Source: Reclinomonas americana ATCC 50394 (taxonomy: Eukaryota). Taken from it: a stretch of DNA of 56,674 nucleotides. Below are positions 2,760 through 43,880 of the stretch, piece by piece. How positions within the stretch are numbered: position 1 is the stretch's first letter; every line of letters begins with the position of its first letter. The stretch is taken from the NCBI GenBank assembly GCA_048213135.1, contig PS015355.1, forward strand, positions 1-56,674, read 5' to 3'. The notes beneath the pieces are model-generated. The model searched no databases. It was not told the origin of the DNA and was given only the letters and a program-made list of their open reading frames with translations. The position numbers and the translations under genes were made by a program.

Positions 2760-3906
2760 GAGTNNNNNNNNNNNNNNNNNNNNNNNNNNNNNNNNNNNNN
2801 NNNNNNNNNNNNNNNNNNNNNNNNNNNNNNNNNNNNNNNNNNNNNNNNNNNNNNNNNNNNNNNNNNNNNNNNNNNNNNNNNNNNNNNNNNNNNNNNNNNN
2901 NNNNNNNNNNNNNNNNNNNNNNNNNNNNNNNNNNNNNNNNNNNNNNNNNNNNNNNNNNNNNNNNNNNNNNNNNNNNNNNNNNNNNNNNNNNNNNNNNNNN
3001 NNNNNNNNNNNNNNNNNNNNNNNNNNNNNNNNNNNNNNNNNNNNNNNNNNNNNNNNNNNNNNNNNNNNNNNNNNNNNNNNNNNNNNNNNNNNNNNNNNNN
3101 NNNNNNNNNNNNNNNNNNNNNNNNNNNNNNNNNNNNNNNNNNNNNNNNNNNNNNNNNNNNNNNNNNNNNNNNNNNNNNNNNNNNNNNNNNNNNNNNNNNN
3201 NNNNNNNNNNNNNNNNNNNNNNNNNNNNNNNNNNNNNNNNNNNNNNNNNNNNNNNNNNNNNNNNNNNNNNNNNNNNNNNNNNNNNNNNNNNNNNNNNNNN
3301 NNNNNNNNNNNNNNNNNNNNNNNNNNNNNNNNNNNNNNNNNNNNNNNNNNNNNNNNNNNNNNNNNNNNNNNNNNNNNNNNNNNNNNNNNNNNNNNNNNNN
3401 NNNNNNNNNNNNNNNNNNNNNNNNNNNNNNNNNNNNNNNNNNNNNNNNNNNNNNNNNNNNNNNNNNNNNNNNNNNNNGGGAGAGAGAGAGAGAGTGGGAG
3501 AGAAGAAGGGATGAGTGAGTGAGTGAGTGAGTAAGTGTGTGCGTGAGTGTGTGTGAGAGAGAGGGAGAGTGAGTGAGTGTGAGAGTGAGTAAGTGAGTGT
3601 GAGAGTGAGTGAGTGAGGGAGAGAGTGCAGAATGAGTGAGTGAGTGAGTGAGTGTGTGCTAGTGAGTGTGAGCGAGCGAGAGAGAGAGAGTGAGAGTCTT
3701 CTCTTTCCCTTTGCCTGTTGTCTCTCACACTCACACGCTCTCTCTCTCTCTCTCTCTCTCCCTCCTCTCTCTCTCTCCCCCTCTTTTCCCTCTCTCCTCT
3801 GTCTCTCTCATTCTCTCTCTCCCGCTCTGTGGACGCAACAAGTGCTACAGTCTGAGACGCATTCACCGCCGCACAGCGCCGACTCGTAGTCGCCATATTG
3901 CGCCAT
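482..3906 (-). CDS. PLAC8/cornifelin-family Cys-rich protein (spliced)
   Basis: Exons ~3906-3840 (MAQYGDYESALCGGECVSDCST), 2637-2474 (FWYGGCCCPCL...RQQLRSKYG), 1111-~710 (CADCLAVCLCPCCAACQDYREIK) and a probable last exon ~608-482. CCPC, RxxxRxxYG and CxCCAxCQxxRE are PLAC8 motifs. The 3' end could alternatively stop at 641. Confidence 0.85.
2688..2760. repeat. (GACA)n microsatellite next to an assembly gap
   Basis: Perfect GACA array in the first PLAC8 intron. Confidence 0.95.
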
Positions 3907-6834: not shown

Positions 6835-7851
6835 TTACACTTCAGGTGCGCTCGATGCGGAGACAACAGCTGCTGCTGGTGGTGCTGGGGCAGAGGAGGA
6901 GGAGGCGTCAGTGGCGGCGGCACTTGCTTCACCCTTGCCACGATCTCCCCGACCTCCTCGTCCACGACCACCACGGCCGCCGCCGCCGCCACGATGCTTT
7001 CCACGACCACCGCGATGCTGTCGCTCTTCACCGCGCCCACCGAATCCGCTCTCGCGACCGTACTGCGCCTCCAGCTGCTCCAGTGTCCACGCCTGCGTCA
7101 CCGAGAATGGACCGATGCAAGTGCGTCGGAGGGCCACCAGATGACCGCCGACGCCCAGCAGCTGACCGAGATCGTGCGCAATCGAGCGAACATATGTGCC
7201 CTGCGTTGAAAGCGTCAGACAAGTTCCGCCTCATCAGTTTTTTCCAAGCACACCAACCTTGGAACATCGCACACGAATGTGCAGATCGGCGCCATCGCGA
7301 CCGAGCACATCCAGCGCCGTGATGTTCACCATGCGCTTCGGTAGTGTCACACTGCCCACATCGTCGCCACGGTGCGCCTTGGAGTACAATCGCTGCCGAC
7401 ACAATGGCAATGAGCGCACGGCGCGCAGAGGACGACAAGTCGCACACACACACACACAAACCTCGCCATCCACATGCACCGCCGAGTACAACGGCACCGT
7501 CTGTTCCACCTCCCCCACAAACGTCTTGCACGCCTCCTCAATGCGCTCACTCGCCAGCGACTCCGCCCCCGCCACACGCTCGCACACCTCCGTGTCGGCG
7601 TCGTACGACGGCGTGCGCTCGCCGAGTCGCACCGTCGCCTCGTACTCCTTCTCCAGGCCCATCAGCATGTTCACCTTGACCGTGGCCTCGCGACCAATGC
7701 AGCAGATCAACAGGCCCTGGGCAGTGAGAGACTGAGTCAGCAAGCGCATTCTCTCGACAGTCGTCGCCTGGTGGCTAACATTGCAGTTCACCGCACTCGC
7801 TCGCTCATTCACAATATTCTTGGAAACTCTACGCGACCCATCGTCGATTAC

Positions 7852-7907
<56 letters not shown>

Positions 7908-10352: not shown

Positions 10353-13162
10353 ATGAGTGCAAGTAGTGTGGTGTTTGCGGCTGCGTGTGCACTGCGTGAG
10401 TATGAGTTGCGTGATTGTGTGTGTGAGAGAGAGAGAGAAGAGTGTGTGCGTGCAAGTGTGTGCAAGTGTGTGCAGTGTGTGTGTGTGTGTGTGTTTAAGG
10501 TTTGTGACTGTTGTTGTTGTTGTTGTGTGTGTGTGTTGTTGTGCAGTGCTTCTGCTGCTGGGCAGCGCGACTTGACTCCGGGAAACTGGTATCGCGTGAC
10601 GCAGATTGTGAGAACACTCTCTCGCCTCTCTCTCTCACACACACACACGCATTCATGTCATACTCCTTCGCTGTCTTGCCCTCGTGACAGTGCATTCTTC
10701 CGTCGACCTCATCTCTCTCCTCAGATGTATTCAAGTCGTTCTTGCTTGCTTTCTCTCCGTACTTCCTGCCTCTCTTCCGCGAACTTGTATGATCGTTAAA
10801 GAGCGATCTGCTGTCGCTCTCGCATCCCACTCTCTCTCCCTTCTCTCTCACTCCGCCGACCTTGCATCCCACCCTCTCTCCTTCTCCTTTACCCTCCCTC
10901 TCCCTTACCCTCCCTCTCCCTTACCCTCCCTTTCCCTTTACCCCCTTCCCCTTTGCAAGGTCGACGACTCATGGGTCAAAGTCCGCGCCTTTGGCATGTG
11001 CGCCGTGGAGGGCCTAGTTCCCCGCGACTGCGTCAAGCTGGTCGGCGATGACGGCGAGGACCTGCGTGGCACCGACTCGGTGCAGGCACTGTCGGGCACT
11101 GTGCCACTGGCCTTTGTTTCGCACTGATCTCTGTGAACAATATCGTGATTATTTTTTGTGTATCTCACGGCGAGTGGCGCAGGCGTACTTGTACAACAAG
11201 CGATTGGCGGCCGACATGCTCAAGTCGACGTTCCGATCGGCAGCCGACGCCGGTCTCTTGCGCCACTTGCAGTACCTCGATATCAGCAGCTGCGTGCCTG
11301 TCTGCGCGTGTTCTCTCATGTAGTTGAAGGCTGACTGTGTGCATGAGTAGACAACAAGGTTCGGCTGGTGGGCGCGGTGGCCATTGCGGAGCACGCCCCA
11401 CAGCTGCTCGGTCTGGAGGCCAAGCGTTGCGTTTTTGCAAGTGGCCGCGTTCACCTGTGTGTGCCAGGTGATTGCTCACTTGTCGCGCGTGCAGGTTGCG
11501 AGCTGGATGCCGAGGCCCTGGAAGCTCTGTCGACGTTGCCGCTGGAGCAACTCATTGTCAGCTGTTGCGTGCAAAGACCCGCGCGTGCGCACGAGTGTCA
11601 CTCTCCTTCTCATACACATGTGCAGCGAATCCTCTTGGTCTTGATGGAGCGCGTGTGATTGCGCAGCGCATGCCCCGGCTCCGTCGCTTGCATATCTACC
11701 GTTTCGTTGCTTCCATTCATGTTGTGCCTCTTTCTCAACTCTCCTCTGACTCATTCACTCGCAGGCTGTCAGGTGGAGGCCGCTGGTCTGGAACAGCTCG
11801 CAGTCGCCTTTGCTGACCAGTTGGAGGACGCCGATTTTGGTGCCAACAGCACCTCAGCCGACTGCATTCAGGCCATTGCGCGCATGAGTCGTCTCAAGCG
11901 ACTGTGCCTGCAAGGTGCGCCTCGGGGAGACGATGTGCTCTTGATTCCCTCTTGCTCTTGCGGCTTTTCTCTCTCTTCCTTCTCTTTCCCCTGTGTTCTC
12001 TCACTCTCTGTCATCACTCTTCAGTCTGTTTCTTTCCCTCTCACCTCTCCTTTTTATCCTCTTGCTCTTATCTCTGTCTTTCCTGCTCAATCCCTCCCTG
12101 TCCATGCCTACACTTCTTGCTTCCTCTCCTTTCCTCCTCCCCTTCCTCTCAACTTCTCCGTTTCCCTCTTGCTCCCGTCTTTCCCTCTCAACTCCTCCCT
12201 TTCTCTGTATTCACTTCTCCATCTCCTTCTCCTCTCTTCTCTCGCAACTTCTCCCTCTCCCTGCCTTCACTCCTCCGTCTCCTTTTCTTCTTGCTTCCTC
12301 TCCTTCCCCCTCAACTTCGCCCTCTCCCTGCCTTCACTCCTCCGTCTCCTTCTCCTCTTGCTTCCTCTCCTTCCCCCTCAACCCCTCCCTTTCCCTGCAT
12401 TCCCTTTTGCTCCCTCATTCTCCCTCTCGCACAGAGAGCGCCATCACTGCGGAGCTGGCTGAAGTTCTCGCTCGTGGACTGCCGACACTGGAACGCTTCC
12501 TGCTCACCAGTGCGTCGTCGTCCTACGCTAGCCGAGCGTGAGACAGCAGCGGGTTACTCACACAATTGTGTGGCGACAGGCAACAATCTGGGTCCACAGG
12601 GCATCGCTGTCATCGTCAAGCACATGTGCCATCTTCGCGAGCTCAATGTGCACGGTATGCAACCTTTGTGCGTCTCTTTGTTGTGCAAGTCCTCGGCATT
12701 TGACATTCCCCTCAAAAAAACAGGATGTGAGATCGGCGCCGAGGGCGCACTGCATGTGGTGGAGGGTCTGCCCGACATTCGCGAGTTGTACATTGACGGT
12801 GTGATGGTCGTTGCTCCTGTTGTTGTTGTCACCTTGTGACGCGACTGACGTTTTTTTGCGCTTGCACAGAGAATAACATTGGCAGCGAGGCGGCGCTGGC
12901 GGTGGCCGAGGGTCTTCCTCGTCTGCGTCGTCTTGGCATTCGTGAGTGTGTGCATCCGTGGAGTATCACTCCCGTGTTTTTGTTGACTCTCTCGTGCGCA
13001 ACAGACGGCAACGGTTTCGAGGACTATGCTGTTGCCTGCGGACTGCCGCCCTCACTGCATGGCCGGTCACAAATGGAGGTTCACAGCGCGGTTCAGGAGC
13101 GCCTCTCAGAGGACAGGAAGCTTTACTGGCAAGACAGACAGCGTGCTTATCGAGATGAGTGA
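10353..13162 (+). CDS. SH3 domain + leucine-rich repeat (RNI-like) protein, ~12 exons
   Basis: Spliced ACALREYDASAAGQRDLTPGNWYRVTQIVDDSWVKV...EGLVPRDCVKL fits SH3. It is followed by ~29-aa LxxLxLxxNxL repeats (LQYLDISNNKV, LERFLLTSNNLGPQG, IRELYIDENNIGSEAA) with one phase-1 intron per repeat. Confidence 0.85.
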
Positions 13163-13170
13163 ATTTGATT

Positions 13171-16100
13171 TTACAGCATGCTGTCAGCCACACTCGCCAG
13201 TCTCAGGTCAGATCGTTCGCCCTCCGGGGCCGCATGCGGGCGGTGTGTACGGAGCCAATAGTTTCTGTGTGTTACGTTGCTCTGCAATCAGCCACGCACC
13301 CCGACACAACATGAACACGACATGACGACGCAACTGGTACACCACGCGGTAGAAGTTGGTCGATCGGACGTACTCTTCACTTTTTTCGGTGGTGGGGCGG
13401 TAGTGGTTGCTGACCGCTCCCGAGGCGCGCACACTTTCAGAGGCCGCCACACCGCCCAGCACCACATCCAGTGTCGGGTCCACAGGATACACGACCTTCA
13501 AGCTCGCGCTCAACCCCTCATGCCTCATGAGCTCACGCTCAAATTCCGCACGGTACTCGGCTGGCGTCGTGCGACCGCCAGTCAGCACGACGTGGTTCAC
13601 AGAGGGTGGAGCGGAGGCAAGCATGCGAGCAGTTGCCTGCGCCATCTCCTCCGCAGACGCATACTCAGCCTCGCGCACCACTGTCGCAACGGGCTTCTCG
13701 GTCAGAACGCCATCGACGACACACGCAACGGTCGCCATGTGATGCCCGACGGAGCACACCACAGCGTCCGTGAGACCCATGTGGATTGCTGACAAGACCG
13801 GGGCAGGGACGAGAACCACGGCGCGGTTGGCGATGGTGCGAATGTTCGATGCCAAGGTCAACTGGTAGCGTGCCGACCAGCCGGTAGCAGGCACAGCAAA
13901 GAGAAGCGGTTGCTTCAGCGAGCGCTGGTCACGAGGGTTTTCGACCAGTGCGGCAAAGAGGAAGCGTGCAAGCAGCTCCGGCAACAGGGTCATGTTGATT
14001 TGGGCTGCGTCGAATGATGAGCAATTGCAATCGCTGCGGCTACGTGATCGACGGAAGAATACGCACCAAACGTCGACACTGGTGTCGCGTACGCGCTGTG
14101 GTTCTCAAGAGCAGCGTTGCCAACCAGCGTGCGGTCGAACGGTCCGCGCCGCATGTGCAGATCGAACATGTATGGTACCTGCGATGCACGCTGAGGTCGC
14201 AATCGGGAGCTTCATGGAAGAGATCACGACACGAGTGTACCTGTGCCACCACGGAGCGGATTTTTTGCGTGCGCACTGTCTTCTTGTTGACAAAGATGGT
14301 CGCGCCCTTGGTCGTGTAACCTCCAATGTCAATCACCATGTACGGCAAACGACCTTCGCCCACAATGTACTGCGTTGGCAAACACAATCCCGCATGAGAA
14401 CACACACGTGTGGCGGCTGCCTCGCGTTACGTGTTTACCTGATTGCGATAGAGACCAAACCAGTCCACGATCGACGGATGGCACTGCATTCAACGACGCG
14501 CGCGACGGTCAACAGCTGTCGGTGCGCGCGGTGCGGCCGCAAAGCACTGACCTTGTGAAGCAACGTCTCGGCAGCGTACAGCAACGGCCACTCGCGACGA
14601 CATCGGCTCTGCGCAATGTTCAGTCGTTTGCCAGCATGCGCGAGGAAGCAGGCAACCTCCATCACTCACCATCCACACACGGCCGTCGTATACCATTTCG
14701 TACCACGCCTAAAAGCAATGAAACATGCGTGAGCTCGCAGGCGATGGTAACGCCTTTTACATACCCCGCACATACCCGGCTCACGGTGAGCGTGCGCATC
14801 ACTTCCGGGGGACTGAGGAACTCGAGCACCGTCCCAAAGACGTCTGGAGGCAGCGGAAGATGTCCACGCTCCACCGGTGGCGGTATGGAGCGTTGCGCGT
14901 CTCGCTGCATGGCAATCGCCTGCAGATACGTGTCAACAAAGCCGGCTGCATCGCCCTCCTCCTCCAGTTGATGCGCTCGTTGATACAGCGTTAGCAGTTG
15001 GAGGTACTGTGCGAAATCAAGCATGAGGTGGTGGTGGTGGTGAACCAGGAGCGCTGTCGGTCAAGGACCAACCTTGGGATCTGACAAGAACGCATCGGGG
15101 TCCGGCTGCGCGGGAGTGTCCACTCGCTGGAACATGATCTCTGTGCGCATAATGTACTGTTGCCACACCGCGTGAGAGCCGAATCGAGGACTTCGTTGAA
15201 GAAGATCTCCACATACAGACCTTGACACCATGTTCCACCTTGTCCCCGGCGTGCATCACGTCGTGATTGAACACCAGAGCGGTACCGGTGCGCGGCCGCA
15301 CAGAGCAGGCAGTATTGGCGGCGTCCACTGCCGGCTGCTCCAGGTCGAGGCGGCCAGAGAACGGATACGACTCCTTCATAAAGTGCGTTTGCCCGCCTGC
15401 ATTCGAGATGTCAGTCAGCGCCGACACGAGAACACACATGCAGTGGCGCACAAGACTCACACACCATCAAAGTTGTCGTTGAGGTACACAATTACAGTGT
15501 AGACCGACGATTCGTCGTACCGCGGCACCCACGGCCCGTCAATGTGCGGCGCAAAGTGACCGCCGCTGGCATATCGATTGACCTTGAAGCACTCGTTGAG
15601 ACGCGTTGGCCGCCACACACCGCGGTTGCCGAAATCCATTGGCCGCACACGAAGCACATCCTGCGGCACCAGGTGAGGCGCAACGCGGTGCCCTGTGTTT
15701 TTTCGCGAGTGAACAACAGGCTATCGTCTGGCCCCACGAGGGACAACAACGCAACACAAGGAAGTGGCCATCTCGTCCGACACGAAGAGAACGCGATCAT
15801 TGCAGCGGTACTCCACCGGGAACGTGGACGCCAGATCAATAAAGCCAGTGTCCGAGGCCTGCGCGATCAGATACGCGCACTCCTGCTGAGAGAGCACGTT
15901 GTGCAAGAGAAAGCATCGTGCTCCCGGCACATCCAGCTCCTCGCGCACAACCCTCCTCGCGACCTTATCCTGCGACACGCCGGCCGACAAACTGTCGCAC
16001 AGCGTCAAGTCGCGCAGGTTCTTCTTGGCCGTCACCAGCATCGGTCGCTGCAGCAACACCGGGCGCTGGCGACGCGCAGCGGATGATTGCATCGACTTGC

Positions 16101-16697
16101 GAATCGCCACAATCAGATCGTGATGTTCCGGCAGCTCGAGTCTCGACGCGACGTCCTCCAGTGGCTCACCAGCTGCGTTGACCATGGGACCATACCTTTC
16201 GCGGTGTCCACTCTTCATCATCAGAGACAAAGGCATAAATAGACACAGATGATGATCACGCACTTGCAGGCCAGCACGAGTGGAACGAAAACATCGATTG
16301 GCGCGCCCTCCTCCAACAGCTGCGCACGATGGTTGACAGTGTTGAGGCAGAGCGGAGAAATTCACACTGCTAACAACGAACCATCACAGCCAATGAGTTC
16401 AGTTCTTGCATTCGTGCGGGGTTCTCTCGCACGCCCAACATGGACAGCGGGCAGCTGTTGAGCTTCTCGGCGGCCATGCTCCACATGTGCCGTCCCACGT
16501 CGTCGGCAATGGCATGCCAGAGCGCCTGCCACTCATCATCCGGCATCATCACGCTGACTTCCTCCTCCACTGCACGTGCATCATCATCGTGTCGGCGATG
16601 TTGGTTTTGCTGCCACTCGCTTTCTTTCTCTCTTTCCAACCCACTCACCGGGACCAGGATCACCACTGGCCGCGGTTTTCGACGAAGACGAGCCCAT
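13171..16697 (-). CDS. Multidomain protein: N-myristoylation motif, 2OG-Fe(II) prolyl-4-hydroxylase-like domain, F-box, actin-like domain
   Basis: Continuous spliced frame: MGSSSSK; LHNVLSQQEC; HFAPHIDG...YLNDNFDGGQT...FNHDVMHAG..V..GVKYIMRTEIMF (HxD...H triad); LPPDVFGTVLEFLSPPEV..L.VSRAWYEMVYDGRVW (F-box); MVIDIGGYTTKG, VVCSVGHHMATVACVVDG and VVLTGG (actin motifs). Both ends are less certain; the 3' end could be 13208. Confidence 0.8.
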
Positions 16698-16829: not shown

Positions 16830-19800
16830 TCACATGGGGATGTTGCAGTGGGATCCGGTCCAGCCCGAGTTGCAGACGCACTGGCCGCTGCTGTCGCAGG
16901 TGCCGTTGCCGAGGCACGTGATGTTCGGATCGCAGAAGACGTCGCAGTTCGGACCAAAGAAGCCAATCGCACACAGCGGAGTTGGCGGGGTGCAGCAGTT
17001 TGCGCCAGTGTAGCCACCGACGCACACGCACTGGCCGTTGACGTCGCAGGTGCCGTGACCGGTGCAAGTGATGGCCGGATCGCAGAAAATGTCGCAGTTC
17101 GGGCCGTAGAAGTTGGTCGGGCAGCCCTGGTTTGTCGGTGGAATGCAGCACGTGGGACCAGTCCAGCCACCAGTGCACACGCATGTGCCATCGGCGGCGC
17201 AAGTGCCGTGACCCATGCACGTCACAGCCGGATCGCAGAAGATGTTGCAGTTGGTGCCGAAGAAGTTGGTGTTGCACACACACTGGCCGGTGGTGGCGTT
17301 GCAGACGCCGNNNNNNNNNNNNNNNNNNNNNNNNNNNNNNNNNNNNNNNNNNNNNNNNNNNNNNNNNNNNNNNNNNNNNNNNNNNNNNNNNNNNNNNNNN
17401 NNNNNNNNNNNNNNNNNNNNNNNNNNNNNNNNNNNNNNNNNNNNNNNNNNNNNNNNNNNNNNNNNNNNNNNNNNNNNNNNNNNNNNNNNNNNNNNNNNNN
17501 NNNNNNNNNNNNNNNNNNNNNNNNNNNNNNNNNNNNNNNNNNNNNNNNNNNNNNNNNNNNNNNNNNNNNNNNNNNNNNNNNNNNNNNNNNNNNNNNNNNN
17601 NNNNNNNNNNNNNNNNNNNNNNNNNNNNNNNNNNNNNNNNNNNNNNNNNNNNNNNNNNNNNNNNNNNNNNNNNNNNNNNNNNNNNNNNNNNNNNNNNNNN
17701 NNNNNNNNNNNNNNNNNNNNNNNNNNNNNNNNNNNNNNNNNNNNNNNNNNNNNNNNNNNNNNNNNNNNNNNNNNNNNNNNNNNNNNNNNNNNNNNNNNNN
17801 NNNNNNNNNNNNNNNNNNNNNNNNNNNNNNNNNNNNNNNNNNNNNNNNNNNNNNNNNNNNNNNNNNNNNNNNNNNNNNNNNNNNNNNNNNNNNNNNNNNN
17901 NNNNNNNNNNNNNNNNNNNNNNNNNNNNNNNNNNNNNNNNNNNNNNNNNNNNNNNNNNNNNNNNNNNNNNNNNNNNNNNNNNNNNNNNNNNNNNNNNNNN
18001 NNNNNNNNNNNNNNNNNNNNNNNNNNNNNNNNNATGCGTGTGCACCGGCGGCTGGACTGGTCCGACGTGCTGCATTCCGCCGACGAACCAGGGCTGCCCG
18101 ACCAACTTCTACGGCCCCAACTGTGACATCTTCTGCGACCCGGCCATCACCTGCATGGGCCACGGCACGTGCTCGGTGAACGGCACGTGCATCTGCACTG
18201 GCGGCTGGACTGGTCCGACGTGCTGCATTCCGCCTGTGGTCTGCCCACCGAACTTCTACGGCCCCAACTGCAACATCTTCTGCGACCCGGCCATCACCTG
18301 CATGGGCCACGGCACATGCGCCGCAAACGGTACGTGCATCTGCACTGGCGGCTGGAGCGGTCCTACATGCTGCATTCCGCCGACACCGCAAGGCTGCCCG
18401 ACGAACTTCTACGGCCCGAACTGTGACATTTTCTGCGACCCGGCCATCACTTGCAGCGGCCACGGCGTCTGCAACGCCACCACCGGCCAGTGTGTGTGCA
18501 ACACCAACTTCTTCGGCACCAACTGCAACATCTTCTGCGATCCGGCTGTGACGTGCATGGGCCATGGCACTTGCGCCGCCGATGGCACATGCGTGTGCAC
18601 TGGTGGCTGGACTGGTCCGACGTGCTGCATTCCACCGACACCGCAAGGCTGCCCAACCAACTTCTATGGTCCAAACTGCGACATTTTCTGCGATCCGGCC
18701 ATCACATGCAGCGGCCATGGTGTGTGCAACGCCACCACCGGCCAGTGCGTGTGCAACACCAACTTCTTCGGCACCAACTGCAACATCTTCTGTGATCCGG
18801 CTGTGACGTGCATGGGCCATGGCACATGCGCCGCCGATGGCACATGCGTGTNNNNNNNNNNNNNNNNNNNNNNNNNNNNNNNNNNNNNNNNNNNNNNNNN
18901 NNNNNNNNNNNNNNNNNNNNNNNNNNNNNNNNNNNNNNNNNNNNNNNNNNNNNNNNNNNNNNNNNNNNNNNNNNNNNNNNNNNNNNNNNNNNNNNNNNNN
19001 NNNNNNNNNNNNNNNNNNNNNNNNNNNNNNNNNNNNNNNNNNNNNNNNNNNNNNNNNNNNNNNNNNNNNNNNNNNNNNNNNNNNNNNNNNNNNNNNNNNN
19101 NNNNNNNNNNNNNNNNNNNNNNNNNNNNNNNNNNNNNNNNNNNNNNNNNNNNNNNNNNNNNNNNNNNNNNNNNNNNNNNNNNNNNNNNNNNNNNNNNNNN
19201 NNNNNNNNNNNNNNNNNNNNNNNNNNNNNNNNNNNNNNNNNNNNNNNNNNNNNNNNNNNNNNNNNNNNNNNNNNNNNNNNNNNNNNNNNNNNNNNNNNNN
19301 NNNNNNNNNNNNNNNNNNNNNNNNNNNNNNNNNNNNNNNNNNNNNNNNNNNNNNNNNNNNNNNNNNNNNNNNNNNNNNNNNNNNNNNNNNNNNNNNNNNN
19401 NNNNNNNNNNNNNNNNNNNNNNNNNNNNNNNNNNNNNNNNNNNNNNNNNNNNNNNNNNNNNNNNNNNNNNNNNNNNNACCCGTCCAGCCGCCCGTGCACA
19501 CACAAGTGCCGTTGGCGGAGCAAGTGCCGTGGCCCATGCACGTTGTGATGGCATTGCAGAAGACGCCACAGTTGGCGCCATAGTAGTTGGTGTTGCACAC
19601 ACAAGTGCCGTTGGTGTTGCACAGACCGTGACCACTGCATGTGACTGCAGGATCGCAGAAGATGTCGCAGTTCGGGCCGTAGAAGTTGGTCGGGCAGCCT
19701 TGCGACGTTGGCGGCACATTGCAGTGAGCACCTGTCCAGCCGCCAGTGCACACACACGTGCCGTTGGCCGAGCAGGTGCCGTGACCGGTGCAGGTGAGGT

Positions 19801-28653: not shown

Positions 28654-30054
28654 TCAACGAAGCACAATGTCGACCGTGGCGAAGGCGGTCTCATCGCACA
28701 GCGACCATGATTGCAAGCAGCCTACGCGTGAGAAAAAGCGATGAGAAAAAGCGTGCTGAGAGAGTGCATAACGCGATCGCTTCACGCAACGAACGATCCA
28801 GTCCTTGGAGACGATCCGAGGCGATCGCCACTCAATGGCGCATCGATGCTTTTCGCCGTGTGGACGTGCGCAGATGAGGTGCGTGTTTTCGGCACGCGAT
28901 AGGCACCCGGTGTATCGAGCTGCATGGCGATGGGAGTGAGCGATACGAGGGAACAAAGGAAGCAAGATGCATGTACCGCCTGCGATCCGGATCATGGCCT
29001 TGACCTCGGCACGCTCGGTGCCTGTGAAGCCCGTCACGGCCACCACCAACTCGCCAAAGCCCGGGATCCCACTGCGCTCAACATGAGGAGCAGCGGCGAG
29101 AATTGTTACAATGCCAATGAGCAGACGCAACTTGGCCGCTGGTGCAGGCGCATACAAGAACGGCTTCGCATCGGGGGCCAGCAGCTCCTGCCGCGCCGCA
29201 CACGCCTCGATCCAGTGCGGCGTGACACACGGAAGACCCAGCAGCACCGCCCGTCTTATCAACACTGCGTTATCGTCGACGGCCAACGCCACCACATGCG
29301 TCACGCCCTCCAGCTCATCCTCGTCGTCGTCCTCCCCCTCCAGCGCATAGTCATCCTCCTTGCGCGTGCACTCACCAGCCGCGGCCACCAGATGCACGGC
29401 CGCGCCCAACCGCAAGCACAAGCTCCTTGCGCGCGCCACCAGCGACTGCCGATACTGCACTGCACTGGCGGCCTCCACTGCCACCTCATCACACCCGACC
29501 AGCACGCCTCCTCCTGCAACGCCCACCGGAAGCACCACACACATGCAAAAGCCGCGGAACACAGGCACCAGTGGAGCCTCCAATGGCGATGCAGTGGTGG
29601 TCACACGCGCAGAGGGTGCGTGTCGCTGCGAGGCCGCGCTCAGACGCAACAACTGTTCCATCACAAGTCGTCGTCGCACGCGCGCGCTCTCATACGCGTC
29701 CATGTCACCGCCACGTGCTCGTCTGCGAGATTCTTCATCAGTGTCGCGGTCGTCTCCTCTATTGCTGCTGTTGTTGTGACGTGTTGTTGCTGGTGTGGAG
29801 GAGGAGGAAGGAGAGGAGTGGGAGGAGGAGGGTGCGTGAGGGGAGGGCGAGTTGGGCAGAGAGGAGGCGGTGGAGTGGTGAGCGGTTGACACATCGCAGT
29901 CGCCGTTGCTCTGAGAATGTGAGTGAGCGAGACACGCACAGAGACGTACACACACACACGTGCGCGAGTGCACACACACACCGACATCGCGCGCGAGGAT
30001 TCGGATTTGCGCTGCGGAGAAACTGGCAACGTCGACGTCGATTTCCCTTTTCAT
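28654..30054 (-). CDS. Tandem BRCT-domain protein (PTIP/TopBP1-type repeats)
   Basis: VTHVV...CVTPHWIEAC and LVVAVTGFTGTERAEVKAMIRIAGARYTGCLS...THLIC...GEK...A.EW...IVSKDWIVRCLQSW are BRCT signatures. Confidence 0.85.
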   Translation of the reverse strand: MKREIDVDVASFSAAQIRILARDVGVCVHSRTCVCVRLCACLAHSHSQSNGDCDVSTAHHSTASSLPNSPSPHAPSSSHSSPSSSSTPATTRHNNSSNRGDDRDTDEESRRRARGGDMDAYESARVRRRLVMEQLLRLSAASQRHAPSARVTTTASPLEAPLVPVFRGFCMCVVLPVGVAGGGVLVGCDEVAVEAASAVQYRQSLVARARSLCLRLGAAVHLVAAAGECTRKEDDYALEGEDDDEDELEGVTHVVALAVDDNAVLIRRAVLLGLPCVTPHWIEACAARQELLAPDAKPFLYAPAPAAKLRLLIGIVTILAAAPHVERSGIPGFGELVVAVTGFTGTERAEVKAMIRIAGGTCILLPLFPRIAHSHRHAARYTGCLSRAENTHLICARPHGEKHRCAIEWRSPRIVSKDWIVRCVKRSRYALSQHAFSHRFFSRVGCLQSWSLCDETAFATVDIVLR

Positions 30055-30069
30055 TTGTGTGCTTGTTTA

Positions 30070-33000
30070 TTATCTGCGCACTTGTGGGAATTGCAACGAG
30101 GGTGGTGATAGAGCGAGGACGGGAGTGTGCATGCGTTCTTGGCGTTTGCGTTCCCGGAAGGCTTCGACCAGATCGCGAAGCCATGGTCGAGGTGGCGTGG
30201 CGGCGTGTTGTGAGCTGGAGTCGCTGCTGTGGTGCGTGTGGAGAGAGTGAGTGAGTAACGGAGCCGGTTATCATGTGACGAGCAAGGCAGGGTGGAGACC
30301 TGGATGCACGTCGAGCAGTGATGCTGGCGGCGGTTTCGGCGACGGCCGCTCCCAGGGAGACGGCCACTTGCCGGTGCTTGGTGCGCAGTGCCAAGCTGCG
30401 TGGAGTGGGTGCGGTGGGGTCGCTGAGTGCGTCGTCATCGCCGCTGCCGTCGGCGTCGTCGTCGCTGAGCGGGTCCACATCGTCGGTGTCGAGGGTGAGC
30501 GACACCTGGTTGAAACGCGAACTGCGTGTGCTGCTGAAACTGCTCGAGTTGCTGTGGGAAGCAGCTCGTGCGCTGTCGGTGTCGGAGGCCACGGCGGAGA
30601 CAGCAAGTGGCGCCGGGGAGTTGCTGGCGGCGCCAGTGGGTGACTCTTGTGGGGAGGTGTCGTCGGGATCGGAAAAATGACGAGCTGACGACGATCGTCG
30701 TCGTCCTCCCCGCAGCGGGCTGATGACGCGTGCGCCCTTGATCTTGCGCAACTCGGCTGCGACCGCGCACACACATCAGTACGAGGATTGATGCGCAGGG
30801 GTCGGCGAAACCAACTAACCGTTGGTGTGAATCAGTTTGTTCTCCAAAAACACCACACGCTCCGACAGCTCGTCGTTCTGCGTGCGCGCCTCGTCGAGCG
30901 CCTCGCTCGCCTGCTCGTTGACCTTGCGCATCTCGACCTCCAGTGCCGTGATGCGTTGTGCCCGGATTTCTACCTTGCGGTCGGCCAGCTGTGCATGCGA
31001 GTGAGGTCGAGTGTGCGACGACGAAGACGCAGCTGTTGAACGCAACGCAGAGCTCCAGCTGCAAGGTTCGCGTCTCGCTCGCCAGTGACTCATTCTGCAT
31101 ACAGAGTGTTTCGACGCGGGAGCGCAAGTAGTTGATCTCCCGCAGCAGCATGCGCTGATTGCCCACTTGTGACTCGAGTGTCCGAATGCTGCGCGCGACG
31201 GTCAGCTGATAAACATGACAGAGCTGTCATTAGAAAAGAAAGGACGCAACGACACGAGCATTTCACGCTCACGGTTGGTGAGCTCGCCGGGCGCCACTTG
31301 CAGCTGGAAGGGCACAAACGCAGTCGGCGGAGGTGACGTTGGCGCACCAGCAGAGGCGCCAGCGGCAGCACTGCCGGCGCTGGTCGGCGTCAACTGCGGC
31401 ATCAGCAGCAGCTCGTCGGCCTTGACCTCGGCCACATGCAATTTCTCGCGCAGTTCGGCGACCTGGCCGCGCGACACGGCCAGCTCTTGCCTCAAGTCCT
31501 CGCGCTCCTCCGACAGCACCTGAATGGTGGCGAGGTGCTCCGAGTCCGCATACGCGAGTTGTTCCTTTTCCAGTCGCAACTCGGTGCATGCCTGCAATAA
31601 TGGGTGAGCGCTCTTGACGCACATATTGACAGCACGGTGGCGAGAACGAAAACCTTTTGCCATCGAGCGCGATCCTCCTGCACCGCCACCAGCTCGCTCC
31701 CTCTCAACGCCCAGTCGTCGATTTCCTCCCGCAGCTTTTCGTTGTCGGCCTCGTGCTGGGAGATCTGCAGCTGCAGCTGACTGATCTCGTCTGCACGCCG
31801 CACACCAATGCATGGATGAGCCACACACGCACACAATCGAGTCGCCATCGACCCGAGCACCACAAAACCTTTGAGCGCCGAGACCTCCTCCGCCACCGCA
31901 TGCAGTGGTGACGAGCCACCACCCAGTGCCCGTTTCAACTGCTCGATCTCCTCCTGAGCGGCCTTGAGCATGCGCTGCAGCTGTGCCGACGTCAACTCTT
32001 CGTTGATAACCGGCCGGTTCTTGATCATCTTGGCACTGCATCGCACGCCACGGTGAGAGAAAGAAAGAAAGAGAGAGAGAGGGTGCCAGCGTGAGAATAC
32101 GTGACGCACCGCTTGCCAAACTCCAGCGTGTTGACCGTCTCTCGATCGTTCCAGCTCGACGAGGAGCAGTTGATGATCAGAGAGGTTTCGGAGTTGCCGC
32201 CAAGCGAGTCTTTAAGCAGCAACGTGAGCTTGGAGTTGCGGTAGGATACGTGTTGTGGGGCCTGTGCGCGTGCGCAGAGTGAGATGAAAGGAAGTGAGCC
32301 ACGACGACGATTGCGACGGCGACGCAACATCGGAATCCCGCCGCCGTGAGGTCAGCTCGTGAATCACTTGGCCGAGCTGCGAGAGCGACTGGTTGATCTT
32401 CTTGGCCTCGTCGAGTCGCTGCCCCTCCGCACCGGTCTTGTCGATGCGCTCCGAGCCGGCCAGGTCGACGAGGTGCAACTTGGAGAAGCGATTCCACGTC
32501 TTGGTCTCGAAATCGCCGGTGCGCAGGTGCAGAATGAAAATGGCATGACTGCGTGACGAGTGCTCGTTCATCTCTGCAAAGCATGTGAGAAACATAGAAG
32601 AAATGGAGGAAAGGAAAGGAGCAGGGTGTGACAACGCAACTCGTTGACGCCACGGCACGATTCATGGAGCCGTCGCGCAGAATGCGAAACACATCGTCCG
32701 GCGTCTGCACCGCCTGCCGTGTGACACCCTCCACCACCATGCCGTGCACCGGGTCCTCGCGAATGCTCAAGTGGTTGCGCCGTGTGGAGAGCAGATCGTA
32801 CACGCGCTCCACATAAATCTCAATGTACGACACCTCCAGCCACAGCCACACGTCGGCCGACATTTGCCCGATTTGCTGAAACAGGGCCTCGCACATGCGC
32901 GGAATGAGACCGCGATGCGGTGACGGCTCGCCGGCGGACTTGGTGACGTCGCCCGGACCCATCATGGTGTGCGTCTTACCGGAGCCAGTTTGTCCGTATG

Positions 33001-34375
33001 CGAAAATGGTCGAGTTGTAGCCCTGCAGGAAGGCTGTCGCATACGAGAGGAGGGGGGATGTGGGTGAGAGGTGGGAGGAGATGAAAGGGGGATGGGGGAG
33101 AGGGGACCTTCAATGGCGGGCTTGCCAAGAGTGTCGTACACTGATTGCTGTGTGGAGTCGTCGCCGAAGATGTGATCGAAGCGGTACAGTCGCTCCTCGT
33201 GCTGCGAGAGCGGGCGAGGGGTGAGAGGAACGTGGAGAAGATCAACACCCACAAGGTGCATGGCTTGTTCAGTTGTCAGGCGGATAGAACACACAGAGAG
33301 AGACAAGAAAGAAATGATGTTCTGGTGACTGCCGAGATCAATCGCACGCAGACATACAAGTGTCGCACCAGCGATCATGGTCAAGTGATCGACAGCGACA
33401 ACGATGAAGGTCAACCGCAGAAACGATCAAGGTAGAAGAGTGATAAAGAATAGCCAGAGAGCGACAAAACGTCAATGAGGTCAACAGTACAAGTCTCACA
33501 CATGCGATCAAGGTAATCGCCATGCAGCAGTGTGACAAGGATCAGCAAATGACAGAACATCAATGAGGTCAACCGACAAGCTTCACACACGATCGAGCTC
33601 GGGGTGAACAAAATGTACAAGTATGACCAGGTTCAGCCAGAACATGACAGAACACCGACGGAGGTCAACCGTACATGTCTCACACGCGGTGAACCGGCAA
33701 ACCCCACATCAAGCCAGAAGCACAATGACAAGAAGCACCGTGCAAGTACCCAGGCAAGATCGACAGACGCCGAGAACATACAACACAATCGATCATGCAG
33801 GTGATAGAGCACACCAGGAACATGCAAACGAGCCCTCGATAGGCAGAACATACCGAGAAACCCTCGCTGCACTCCCATGCATGCTCAAACCCGAGAGAAA
33901 CCCTCTAAACCCACGATAAGCACTCTCACAGCCCACGAGAACAGGCCAAGAAACCCTGCTCTGCCGCACTCTCTGCGCCTCTCTCCACCACACCAAACCA
34001 CCACCAAAAGCCCTCTCCACACCCCACGGAAAAACAAAACAAAAGGCACTTTGATGATCCATCCACTCACCGTCAGGCCTGGTGTGGCAGCCACCGGAGT
34101 CGACACACTGCCGTCCCCCGCCGAGAACGACGCTGACTCATCAAACACACTACTCGCACCACCACGTCGCACCTGCACAGAGACACAGAGAGACAGAGTG
34201 AGCAGAGGGAAGAGACACAGAGAGCAAAAACACTCACCAATACTTTCACTGATCGCTGGTCCGGCAACACCTCCACATTCCGCATGCCGCCCCCGTTCAA
34301 CTCCGCCGCATTTTGCGGCCGAAATCGCGCCGCCACGCGAATCGTCTTGCCGCCATTGCCATTGCCGCCCTCCAT
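30070..34375 (-). CDS. N-terminal motor kinesin with coiled-coil stalk (3' end uncertain)
   Basis: [36 protein letters not shown] (P-loop), [43 protein letters not shown] and [13 protein letters not shown] motifs, then heptad-rich exons. Confidence 0.95.
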
Positions 34376-37068: not shown

Positions 37069-37915
37069 NNNNNNNNNNNNNNNNNNNNNNNNNNNNNNNN
37101 NNNNNNNNNNNNNNNNNNNNNNNNNNNNNNNNNNNNNNNNNNNNNNNNNNNNNNNNNNNNNNNNNNNNNNNNNNNNNNNNNNNNNNNNNNNNNNNNNNNN
37201 NNNNNNNNNNNNNNNNNNNNNNNNNNNNNNNNNNNNNNNNNNNNNNNNNNNNNNNNNNNNNNNNNNNNNNNNNNNNNNNNNNNNNNNNNNNNNNNNNNNN
37301 NNNNNNNNNNNNNNNNNNNNNNNNNNNNNNNNNNNNNNNNNNNNNNNNNNNNNNNNNNNNNNNNNNNNNNNNNNNNNNNNNNNNNNNNNNNNNNNNNNNN
37401 NNNNNNNNNNNNNNNNNNNNNNNNNNNNNNNNNNNNNNNNNNNNNNNNNNNNNNNNNNNNNNNNNNNNNNNNNNNNNNNNNNNNNNNNNNNNNNNNNNNN
37501 NNNNNNNNNNNNNNNNNNNNNNNNNNNNNNNNNNNNNNNNNNNNNNNNNNNNNNNNNNNNNNNNNNNNNNNNNNNNNNNNNNNNNNNNNNNNNNNNNNNN
37601 NNNNNNNNNNNNNNNNNNNNNNNNNNNNNNNNNNNNNNNNNNNNNNNNNNNNNNNNNNNNNNNNNNNNNNNNNNNNNNNNNNNNNNNNNNNNNNNNNNNN
37701 NNNNNNNNNNNNNNNNNNNNNNNNNNNNNNNNNNNNNNNNNNNNNNNNNNNNNNNNNNNNNNNNNNNNNNNNNNNNNNNNNNNNNNNNNNNNNNNNNNGC
37801 CCACCAACAACGAGGGAGGCACAAAATCCAGCAGCGGGCCTCAAGTGTGGAGCGGAGAAGAGAGAGAAGAGGGAGGAGGGCACAAGGAGGAGAGGGGATG
37901 CCATTCTAGCGAGTC

Positions 37916-41600: not shown

Positions 41601-43880
41601 ATGTACAGACTGCCGTCGCCTATTGATACTGACGCGCCACCACACAAGCGCTCACGTCATCATCATCACCACCAACACGCGCACCAGCCGCACGAACACG
41701 AGCACGAGCAAGACGACATGGCCGCGGCCATGTCCGCTCCTCCCTCCTCGTCGGCGTACATGCTCAGCGCGGCTGCCGCTGGGCACATGTACCCGGCGGG
41801 CATGCTGGGCGACCCGGCCGCTGCCACGTTTCTGGTGATGCCAACGCCGGTGCGCAGTGGTGCTCTCTCTCACAAGCGCTTCTCTCTCTCTCTCTTCATC
41901 CACGCACTCTCCCCTTTTTTCTCCCTGTTTGTTACTTTTCGTCGGTGTTCGGCGCGATGTTCGCGAGTGTGTATGCGGCGTGTGACTGTGTGTGCGTGTG
42001 TGAGTGAGCGCGTCTGGGCTGAGTTTTGTGGGGGTTCGGTTATCCTTTTTTAGTGGGCGCGTGATCGTGGTGGTGTGGGCCATTTTCCTCGTCGTCCCAC
42101 CACCAGCGCGCCCCTGCACTCTCGCCCTCTGCTCGCACTCACTCTCCTTGCGCTCTCTGCTGCTGTGCGTGTGTCATTCGCCTGTTGTTTTGTGTTGTGC
42201 GCGTGTGGGAATTCGAACGTTAAGAAACTCTTGGCTCATCATCTCCATCCGTCATTCTTCGTGCAGGCCTACGCCCAGCTGTTGCTCCAGCAGCAACAAC
42301 AGCAGCAGATCATTCAGCAGCAACAGATGCTGCTCCAGCACATGCAACAGCAGCAACATCACCAACAACAACAACAACAGCAACAACAACACCAGCAGTT
42401 CATGGCCTTCACGGGTCCGTATGTTGCTGCGCCTCATGCCCACCAGCCACCGGCGCCCTCGCCTGCTGCGCTGTTTCTGCCCGGCGCCGCCATGCAACTG
42501 CCGGCATCACCGCAAATTCTCTTTGGCAGTCCAGCCACGGCCACGTCCATGACGGCCTCGTCGCCGTCGTTGCATTTCGGCATGGTTGCGCCACCCACGC
42601 CGCTGCTGCAGAGCGCGTATCCGGGTGCGCCACCGCCTCCGCCACCTCCACCACCTCCACCACCACCTCCGCCACCACTGTCGCGAAAGAGCAGCTCGTC
42701 GGCCGTGGCCAGCCCACCGCCGTCGGTGCTGCCACCAACTCCAGCGCCCACACCAGAAGGTGGACCGGCCGCGGGAACGCGACTGTCGAACCTGTCGCTC
42801 TTGGCGCACGCCTCCACGGCGGTGGAGACGTCGGCAGACTCACCGGCACCCGCCAGTCAGGGCGGTCACCAGCCGCGAACGCACTCGCCACCAAACGCGT
42901 CACTGACACCGCCCGACTCGCCAGCCTCACTACGCCACCGACAGCATCACCACCACCACCAACAACAACAACAACAGCTGCCGCAGCAGTCCATCATGCT
43001 GCCGCCGCCACAGATGCATTCGAGTGCCCTGCAAGCGACGGAGATCGTCATGCTGCCGCCGCTGGACATGCAGCTGGCGTCGTTGGGCATGATGCCGTAT
43101 CCGGCGGCGCTACAAGCGACGCCGTCAATTGCCGCTCGCCTCGCCGGTGGTGCCGCCTCGCGACCACCGTTCATGCCAGCAGTGCCAATGTTGCTACCGC
43201 TGCCGTCCACCGGCACCTCCTCTGTGGCCTCCTCCGTTGCCTCGTCACCGAAACACAGCAGGAGAGGGTCCGGAGGCGCTCCTCGTACTGCGGCCGCCAG
43301 TGCCGCCACTCACCAGCGCCGCTCGTCTGCTGCTGCCGATTCGGCGGCGTTTGGCCACGGCAGATTACGAAGCAAGCCGATCAACGACGACGAGGAAGAG
43401 GAGGACGAAGACGCGGAGCGCGAGGAAGAGGAGGAAGAGGAGGAGCATGTGGGTGCCGACGGAGGCGAGGGAGACTGGGCCGGTGCCGCGTTGCCGGTGC
43501 ATTTTGAGGGCGAGCAGCTGTCCAGCACTGGCGAGGTGACGTACACTTGCCTGTTTCCCGGCTGCAGCCGCGCGTTTGCGCGACGCTCGGATCTGCGCAC
43601 CCACTTGCGCGTGCACACCGGCGATCGACCATACGTGTGCATGCAAGACGGCTGCGGCAAGTCCTTCACCACCTCCTCCAACTTGTCGCGCCACACGCGC
43701 ATCCACACGGGCGAGCGGCCGTACATTTGCGAGTTCACCTCCTGTGGCAAGTCCTTTCGCCAGATCTCCCACCTACGACGCCACCACGAGGTGCACCGGC
43801 GACGAGGCGACATTCCACCACCATCTATGCGCCACCAGATGCCACCTACGCCACCGCCACCTCCGGCGCATGCGCAGTGA
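41601..43880 (+). CDS. C2H2 zinc-finger transcription factor (three C-terminal fingers)
   Basis: CLFPGC..F...LRTHLRVHTGDRPY, CMQDGC...HTRIHTGERPY and CEFTSC...HHEVH fingers; Q/P-rich N-terminus; one intron ~41850-42266; start uncertain. Confidence 0.92.

Follow-up and report, generated by a model that had tools for sequence, protein, structure and literature searches.

The locus described here raises the question of whether a single eukaryotic gene can join an oxygenase, an F-box and an actin-like domain in one protein, and of what such a protein might do. It lies in Reclinomonas americana ATCC 50394 (assembly GCA_048213135.1) within the first 56,674 nucleotides (nt) of contig PS015355.1, a stretch referred to below as the window. 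When its exons are read and joined by coordinates, the gene runs on the minus strand from 16697 to 13171. The first-pass annotation, made from the sequence alone, had described a fusion with a myristoylation motif, an ankyrin-like stretch, a 2-oxoglutarate (2OG)-Fe(II) domain, an F-box and a shortened actin-like domain, and had pointed to the prolyl hydroxylase PhyA as a parallel. Our analysis upholds one gene with an oxygenase, an F-box, an actin fold and a myristoylation-type start, whereas the ankyrin assignment and the PhyA link do not hold up well.

The reading frame imposes strong constraints on splicing. In a three-frame translation, the minus-strand coding pieces switch frame every 40-450 nt, and each of introns 1-13 either shifts the frame or holds an in-frame stop, so that all 13 must be spliced out. 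The first model comprised 14 exons (16697-13208); the 13 introns between them measure 53-79 nt and all follow the GT...AG rule, and the joined frame encodes 879 amino acids (aa) with 0 internal stops. An extra 3′ GT-AG intron of 61 or 64 nt (13342 or 13345 to 13282) leads to a stop at 13173-13171 and gives a 15-exon model with 14 GT-AG introns, again of 53-79 nt, and a single open frame of 870/871 aa; without this last splicing step, the frame continues to a stop at 13210-13208. Removal of the last intron produces a C-terminal FY-x-NYW motif common to the relatives P0001, P0007, P0032/P0034 and P0033, described below, at similar spacing. The exons have a GC content of 0.60 (0.72 at third codon positions, GC3) versus 0.545 in the introns, and the last-intron stretch is too short for base composition to discriminate between the two endings. 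We consider the 15-exon model the rather likelier one. Its stop codon ends at 13171, the boundary first assigned to the gene. For exons 1-3 (residues 1-95), the support consists of splice signals, the open frame and a homologue-like MG start only. The features of the gene, all on the minus strand, are as follows.

16649-16697, minus strand: exon 1, with the ATG at 16697 and MGSSSSK (16697-16677), an N-myristoylation pattern.
16388-16569, minus strand: exon 2, a poorly conserved N-terminal region without homology support.
16264-16319, minus strand: exon 3, carrying the LLEEGAPID stretch, without a significant ankyrin match.
15756-16210, minus strand: exon 4, the RPMLxTAxKNxR family motif and the N-terminal part of the oxygenase.
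15465-15692, minus strand: exon 5, oxygenase core with H297 (15546-15544) and D299 (15540-15538).
15221-15396, minus strand: exon 6, oxygenase core with H372 (15253-15251) and K382 (15223-15221).
15073-15156, minus strand: exon 7, final strand of the oxygenase (YIMRTEIMF, including R386) followed by the first part of the linker.
About 15093-14872, minus strand: conserved helical linker, starting in exon 7.
14776-15006, minus strand: exon 8, helical linker and first half of the F-box (from about 14859; L462, P463).
14670-14708, minus strand: exon 9, second half of the F-box, to W499.
14552-14608, minus strand: exon 10, spacer following the F-box.
14439-14483, minus strand: exon 11, spacer with a conserved DW[FY] motif.
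14241-14369, minus strand: exon 12, start of the actin fold (from about 14354), with the phosphate-1-type motif D548-I-G-G-x3-K555.
14067-14178, minus strand: exon 13, actin-fold domain, subdomain-2 region.
13343-14004, minus strand: exon 14, main body of the actin fold (to about 13433), with its 3′ end at 13343 or 13346.
13171-13281, minus strand: exon 15 of the preferred model, the C-terminal tail with the NYW motif and the stop TAA (13173-13171).

Evidence that these exons belong together comes from homologues whose matches cross the exon junctions. A search with exon 14 among 8000 longer candidates found none at E <= 0.001, and the family was reached only via a full HMMER scan of 1.84 billion representatives, in which P0001 was the sole protein at E <= 0.001 (match 634-787). 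P0001 is an environmental protein of 837 aa that starts with MGSATSK; its contig measures 2710 nt and thus leaves no room for introns. It scores above the Pfam cutoffs in four families: Ank_3 (63-88), 2OG-FeII_Oxy_3 (287-370; 46.2 bits), F-box-like (446-487; 28.9 bits) and Actin (538-711; 75.7 bits, E = 3.5e-21). The spliced window product aligns with it over its full length and is identical at 270/767 aligned positions. In BLASTP, the spliced model matches each of four relatives in a single unbroken segment: P0001 (E = 9e-134, model residues 183-804), P0004 (E = 6e-135, residues 144-803), P0005 (E = 3e-129, residues 135-761) and P0007 (E = 3e-97, residues 185-843). These segments span all junctions from intron 4 through intron 13, and a conserved tryptophan aligns with the homologues at the exon 4/5 junction. 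Given such matches across the junctions, the combination of domains in the predicted protein appears far beyond chance.

P0007 also bears on the original proviso that the oxygenase and actin parts might be separate transcripts. It is a transcript open reading frame (ORF) of 750 aa from the choanoflagellate Choanoeca flexa, and it holds all three domains in a single ORF, which argues for one gene. P0004 and P0005 are proteins of the sponge Ephydatia muelleri, annotated as hypothetical. The sponge has at least eight NCBI-named paralogues (G019450 to G019488) on one 8.2-Mb contig, namely P0004, P0005, P0009, P0010, P0028, P0029, P0032 and P0033, and this set is a tandem expansion of the family. 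A family profile search yielded 26 proteins. When 11 relatives were scanned with Pfam, 10 contained both the oxygenase and the F-box, and four of these 10 (P0001, P0004, P0005 and P0007) also contained Actin at E <= 0.003; the eleventh is a bacterial oxygenase-kinase fusion. The same layout is therefore found in a sponge, a choanoflagellate and environmental P0001, and other environmental contigs hold contiguous parts of it: 6 of 30 metagenome loci encoding relatives extend from the oxygenase into the actin-like region. These loci are too intron-fragmented to deepen the alignment of the actin-like domain. A search of the ESM Atlas with P0001 gave best scores of 0.77, all for ankyrin clusters and below lead level.

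Conservation differs markedly along the chain. The mean pairwise identity among the window protein, P0001, P0004 and P0007 is 0.51 for the oxygenase, 0.38 for the helical linker, 0.32 for the F-box, 0.24 for the actin-like domain and 0.16 for the N-terminus. MAFFT alignments with the window exons entered as fragments misplaced exon 14 and were set aside; the alignments used were one without window rows and one with exon 14 placed first, checked by eye. We found no description of the tri-domain layout in open-access papers or preprints, in line with the earlier statement that no characterised protein with all three domains was known. The family is conserved, unnamed and uncharacterised, and its novelty is the tri-domain layout, while oxygenase-F-box fusions and fusions of an F-box with an actin-related protein (ARP) are each already known.

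The nearest bacterial relatives of the oxygenase domain are the myxobacterial proteins P0020-P0024 (e.g., from Stigmatella erecta), fusions of 753-755 aa with adenylate kinase and an APH-type phosphotransferase domain.

What kind of oxygenase does the gene encode? For the window gene, Pfam was run on nine single-exon translations, and the partial matches fall in the correct order along the profiles. Exon 5 matches 2OG-FeII_Oxy_3 (E = 5.7e-4, profile 2-38) and so does exon 6 (E = 0.071, profile 55-86); taken singly, the two reach 21.2 and 14.5 bits, where the cutoff is 27. H297, D299, H372, K382 and R386 are invariant in 9/9 aligned sequences. K382, ten residues past the distal histidine, aligns with the lysine of the Bacillus anthracis prolyl 4-hydroxylase (P4H) structure. 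The HxD...H iron triad is thus in place, as is the lysine expected of this class for binding the C5 carboxylate of 2OG. The signature H-[ILV]-D-G-P-W and the conserved helical extension distinguish the family from other P4Hs.

A profile of the oxygenase matched 16 sequences in the PDB at E <= 1. The best were the P4H of B. anthracis (E = 9.6e-10), human P4H-TM (E = 1.1e-7), the collagen prolyl hydroxylase of PBCV-1 (vCPH; E = 2.5e-7) and the P4H of Chlamydomonas (E = 4e-6), with P3H1 (E = 2.8e-4), LH3 (E = 6e-4), C-P4H alpha-2 (E = 0.12) and the PHD-like PPHD (4iw3; E = 0.37) further down. EGLN/PHD2 had no entry among these 16 matches. An AlphaFold2 (AF2) model of P0001 has a mean predicted local distance difference test (pLDDT) of 54.6 overall, but values of 77-94 over residues 170-380. 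Foldseek matched the oxygenase part of this model to vCPH (5c5t, TMt 0.68), to the algal P4H (3gze, TMt 0.60) and also to PiuC. The double-stranded β-helix fold, as modelled on the homologue P0001, thus appears closest to P4Hs. Taken together, the profile and fold matches point to a collagen-type P4H-like dioxygenase with a complete active site that lies outside the PHD/PhyA clade. The PhyA-type link suggested at first is weakened accordingly, since the collagen-type P4Hs match at E from 1e-9 to 4e-6 and 4iw3 only at 0.37.

Three further search results concern this domain. When exon 5 was compared singly with the PDB (phmmer), E2 enzymes appeared at E >= 0.19 and P4H-TM at 0.41, which we take as chance matches. 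No Pfam match to JmjC was found at E <= 0.1 in the nine window exon translations or the 11 relatives. The oxygenase domains of P0001 (287-376), P0004, P0007, P0008 and P0011 show weak, sub-threshold Pfam matches to Pox_C4_C10 (E from 2e-4 to 0.05), a family of poxvirus C4/C10 proteins.

The F-box follows after the helical linker, which is conserved and may therefore hold the catalytic site in a fixed position relative to Skp1. F-boxes (Pfam PF00646/PF12937) are motifs of about 45 residues with a leading L-P and the hydrophobic pattern of three helices. Exon 8 matches the Pfam F-box with E = 0.036 (profile 4-29), and the remainder of the motif lies in exon 9. L462, P463 and W499 are invariant in 9/9 aligned sequences, and the homologous F-boxes score above the cutoff of 24.3 bits in P0001 and in P0005 (55.5 bits). 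The F-box pattern is intact in the window protein, and binding to Skp1 is predicted.

The C-terminal region matches the actin family (Pfam PF00022), as first proposed. A family profile built without the window sequence gave 199 PDB matches at E <= 0.1, and the best 60 of the 199 are all actins (top E = 6.4e-13). On actin, the alignments begin at residue 10-70 and end near residue 365. Between the phosphate-2 region and the adenosine motif, however, the family is ~90 residues shorter: actin has about 130 residues in this interval, and the window protein has 45. The missing stretch falls at the position of actin subdomain 4. The domain therefore lacks most of this subdomain and does not show the four subdomains of actin. 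An AF2 model of window exon 14, built with 11 family rows, has a mean pLDDT of 59.5 and a predicted TM-score (pTM) of 0.62, with pLDDT values of 70-90 over residues 60-190; its low-confidence end includes the stretch now thought to be intronic. Among the matches listed by Foldseek for this model are Arp2/3-complex entries, EutJ, MreB/Mbl, dynactin, actin, Arp4/BAF53, Arp7/9 and an Hsp70-type ATPase. The best has E = 5.5e-6 and TMq 0.56, and Arp2/3-complex chains, MreB, EutJ and actin fall between 5e-6 and 1e-4. If the matched chains are taken as members of the actin superfamily, exon 14 is predicted to adopt the actin/ASKHA fold. Compared singly with the PDB (phmmer), exon 14 gave an S-layer protein at E = 0.9 only, which we take as a chance match.

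The nucleotide site is only partly preserved. Actin binds its nucleotide through the phosphate-1, phosphate-2 and adenosine motifs. The phosphate-1-type pattern D-x-G-[GS]-x3-K is kept in 6/7 sequences that cover it, and every sequence shows a degenerate phosphate-2 motif. The window protein and P0007 retain the adenosine-type GG, which P0001 and the sponge proteins have lost; the window protein has TGG at the adenosine-motif position and a C-terminal GG. With motifs partly degenerate in this way, ATP binding is not a conserved property of the family.

The N-terminus varies in kind among the relatives. The N-myristoylation pattern, G-{EDRKHPFYW}-x2-[STAGCN]-{P}, requires a Met-Gly start and a small residue at position 6. 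MGSSSSK fits it as a pattern match, as do P0001 and P0005. An MG start is also found in P0004, where a proline at position 6 places the protein outside the pattern, while P0007 starts with MA. The ankyrin-like stretch that had been read here did not withstand a phmmer search with residues 1-170 against the collected proteins, among them the ankyrin protein P0003 and P0001 with its Ank_3 repeat: residues 1-135 gave no match at E <= 10. Across the family, P0001 combines MG with Ank, the sponge proteins have MG without Ank, and the motif RPMLxTAxKNxR is conserved just ahead of the oxygenase. In P0002 (785 aa, ENA), two WWE stretches (E = 1.4e-9) replace the myristoyl/Ank N-terminus; the predicted protein stops where the actin-like domain begins, probably because of an intron.

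How does such a protein compare with known systems? To our knowledge, F-box proteins with an oxygenase of their own are rare, and those that have been studied (JcdI and KDM2) use JmjC domains. The animal proteins KDM2A/KDM2B (FBXL11/FBXL10) combine a 2OG oxygenase and an F-box in one polypeptide and associate with SKP1; they are nuclear JmjC histone demethylases with CXXC, PHD and leucine-rich-repeat domains, and have no P4H-type or actin-fold domain. Apart from plant ARP8, we know of no F-box receptor class that resembles a degenerate actin fold. In ARP8, an F-box is likewise followed by an actin-family domain; the protein is reportedly located in the nucleolus (Kandasamy et al.). It differs from the fusion protein in having no oxygenase domain and in this nucleolar location, as opposed to a membrane-type address.

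The closest studied precedent is JcdI/Fbxo13 of Dictyostelium. JcdI binds Skp1 via its F-box, its dioxygenase activity depends on physiological O2, and the JcdI family is conserved across protists and reported absent from metazoa (PMC9485057). Like the protein described here, JcdI/JcdH unites a non-haem Fe/2OG dioxygenase and an F-box in a single chain. Its oxygenase, however, is a JmjC domain related to JmjD6 rather than P4H-type, its F-box is N-terminal to the oxygenase, and it has no actin-fold domain. Conversely, the collagen-type P4Hs (3itq/5hv0, 6tp5, 5c5t, 2jig/3gze) are the closest solved relatives of the oxygenase by both profile and fold (TMt 0.60-0.68) and share the HxD...H triad with the lysine ten residues after the distal histidine, but they are stand-alone or endoplasmic reticulum/secretory proteins without an F-box or actin fold. 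The PhyA and PHD (EGLN) systems, which act on Skp1 or HIF, couple O2-dependent prolyl hydroxylation to a cullin-RING ligase pathway. In these systems, enzyme, substrate and ligase receptor are separate proteins, and the oxygenase of the fusion does not belong to their group.

We propose, with about even confidence, that the protein is a probably myristoylated, O2-dependent protein hydroxylase docked on Skp1 and the Skp1-cullin-F-box (SCF) complex, with an actin fold that binds a partner or substrate. The F-box would dock the protein on Skp1 and hence on the SCF ubiquitin ligase. The oxygenase would be active and hydroxylate a residue of a protein, in all likelihood proline, with O2 and 2OG levels determining how fast. 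The actin-fold domain may no longer act as a polymerising ATPase but as a fixed partner- or substrate-binding module; it occupies the usual receptor position C-terminal to the F-box and is constant in the family, which suggests that what it binds is always the same partner or substrate. The N-terminus, variable as it is, would address the machine, by myristate with or without Ank in the window protein and P0001 and by WWE in P0002, and here the address would be a membrane. Overall, whatever protein the actin fold binds would be hydroxylated in an O2-dependent manner and, coupled to this, ubiquitylated through the SCF.

Several points weigh against this proposal. Skp1 binding, catalysis, substrate and myristoylation are predicted from motifs, and the single-transcript reading draws on homology. 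In the window, the F-box match stays below threshold because an intron splits the motif, and the Actin match of exon 14 (E = 2.6e-6, 26.7 bits) falls 0.3 bits short of the cutoff of 27. The AF2 alignments are shallow, with 8 rows for P0001 and 12 for exon 14, and both models are weak, being confident only in the oxygenase core and ~130 actin-like residues. P0006, a transcript ORF of 549 aa from the amoebozoan Cochliopodium minus, has the oxygenase and the F-box and ends just after the latter, so the actin-like domain may not be universal. The window protein keeps phosphate-1 and adenosine-type motifs, and it may therefore still be able to bind nucleotide. Finally, the O2 phenotype of JcdI is independent of its F-box, and the F-box may accordingly control the enzyme rather than deliver substrates.

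This last point leads to the main alternative, which we consider unlikely. As in JcdI, the protein may chiefly be a hydroxylase of targets outside the SCF, with an F-box that only provides solubility on Skp1 and sets the protein's own level through SCF turnover, and an actin fold that localises the enzyme or selects its substrates. For JcdI/Fbxo13, the lowered O2 threshold in Dictyostelium needed catalysis and the C-terminal region, not the F-box, and solubility in E. coli required Skp1. The oxygenase is also the best-conserved domain of the present family (0.51, against 0.32 for the F-box). However, all 9/9 sequences share the LP and W of the F-box, the conserved linker (0.38) suggests that geometry toward Skp1 matters, and JcdI differs in both oxygenase class and domain order.

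A different role for the actin fold, which we regard as quite improbable, is that of a working, nucleotide-binding actin-related module. It would engage actin filaments or ARP-containing complexes in the cell cortex, and the protein would then link the SCF to the actin cytoskeleton as an adaptor. The phosphate-1 type retained in 6/7 sequences, the adenosine TGG and C-terminal GG of the window protein and the assignment by Pfam to Actin rather than MreB or Hsp70 are consistent with this view, and a myristoyl signal would give membrane placement. Nevertheless, phosphate-2 is degenerate throughout, P0001 and the sponge proteins no longer have the adenosine motif, ~90 residues of subdomain 4 are missing, and the actin fold is the least conserved of the domains (0.24).

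There is little chance, in our judgement, that the tethered oxygenase hydroxylates Skp1 itself in the manner of PhyA, so that an F-box protein would modify its own adaptor. The F-box would indeed hold the enzyme on Skp1, and prolyl hydroxylation of Skp1 by a cytoplasmic P4H is established in Dictyostelium and Toxoplasma. The idea is disfavoured by the oxygenase clade, which is that of collagen-type P4Hs and not of EGLN/PHD enzymes; by the occurrence of the family in a sponge and a choanoflagellate, whereas Skp1 modification is described as protist-unique (10.1101/764241); and by the position of the target proline, which lies in the F-box-binding region of Skp1 and would be covered by a bound F-box. 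That two or three adjacent genes (for an oxygenase, an F-box protein and an actin-related protein) were misread as one, through frames that join by coincidence, is very unlikely: exons 1-3 lack homology support, but the oxygenase linker ends and the F-box begins within a single exon (exon 8), the domain order recurs in the assembled transcript ORF P0007 and in intron-free P0001, and the BLASTP segments are unbroken over residues 144 to 804.

The neighbours are ordinary nuclear genes that give no clue to the function of the fusion. The next gene upstream, at 16833-17309 (minus strand) and continuing across the N gap at 17311-18033, encodes a DSL (Delta/Serrate ligand) domain (E = 4e-31) together with EGF repeats of the teneurin type; about 130 nt separate its stop from the ATG of the fusion gene. 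A convergent ORF at 11659-13162 (plus strand; stop 13160-13162) has a leucine-rich-repeat look by eye and no Pfam match at E <= 0.001. With only 8 nt between its stop and the preferred stop of the fusion gene, the 3′ untranslated regions must overlap. Other genes at 7237-7902 (minus strand), 28657-30066 (minus strand), 32180-33109 (minus strand), 42054-43877 (plus strand) and 50589-52654 (plus strand) encode a TruB pseudouridine synthase, a BRCT protein, a kinesin motor, a C2H2 zinc-finger protein and major facilitator superfamily transporters. The window is a gapped scaffold with 11 N runs (e.g., 2764-3477, 17311-18033 and 37069-37798), none of them within the fusion gene.

The family may be of interest beyond this organism because its prolyl-4-hydroxylase-type domain belongs to the class of enzymes on which oxygen sensing relies in animals (PHD/HIF) and in protists (PhyA/Skp1). 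It occurs in a choanoflagellate and a sponge, which stand close to the animal origin and in which oxygen sensing is poorly understood; choanoflagellates and sponges are reported to be without the HIF pathway (PMC5800844). A bolder extension of our proposal, which we hold to be rather unlikely, is that the family is a self-contained O2 sensor in which a membrane-addressed chain hydroxylates a bound protein in proportion to O2 and its own F-box passes that protein to the SCF for ubiquitylation, and that this sensor dates back to the ancestor of Amoebozoa plus Holozoa and has persisted in choanoflagellates and sponges. If true, the logic of PHD plus VHL would be collapsed into a single chain. If the hydroxylase marks the degradation targets of the ligase, it would provide a new route from O2 to proteolysis; otherwise, these proteins still form a well-defined, conserved and unnamed family that is worth an entry in domain-architecture databases.

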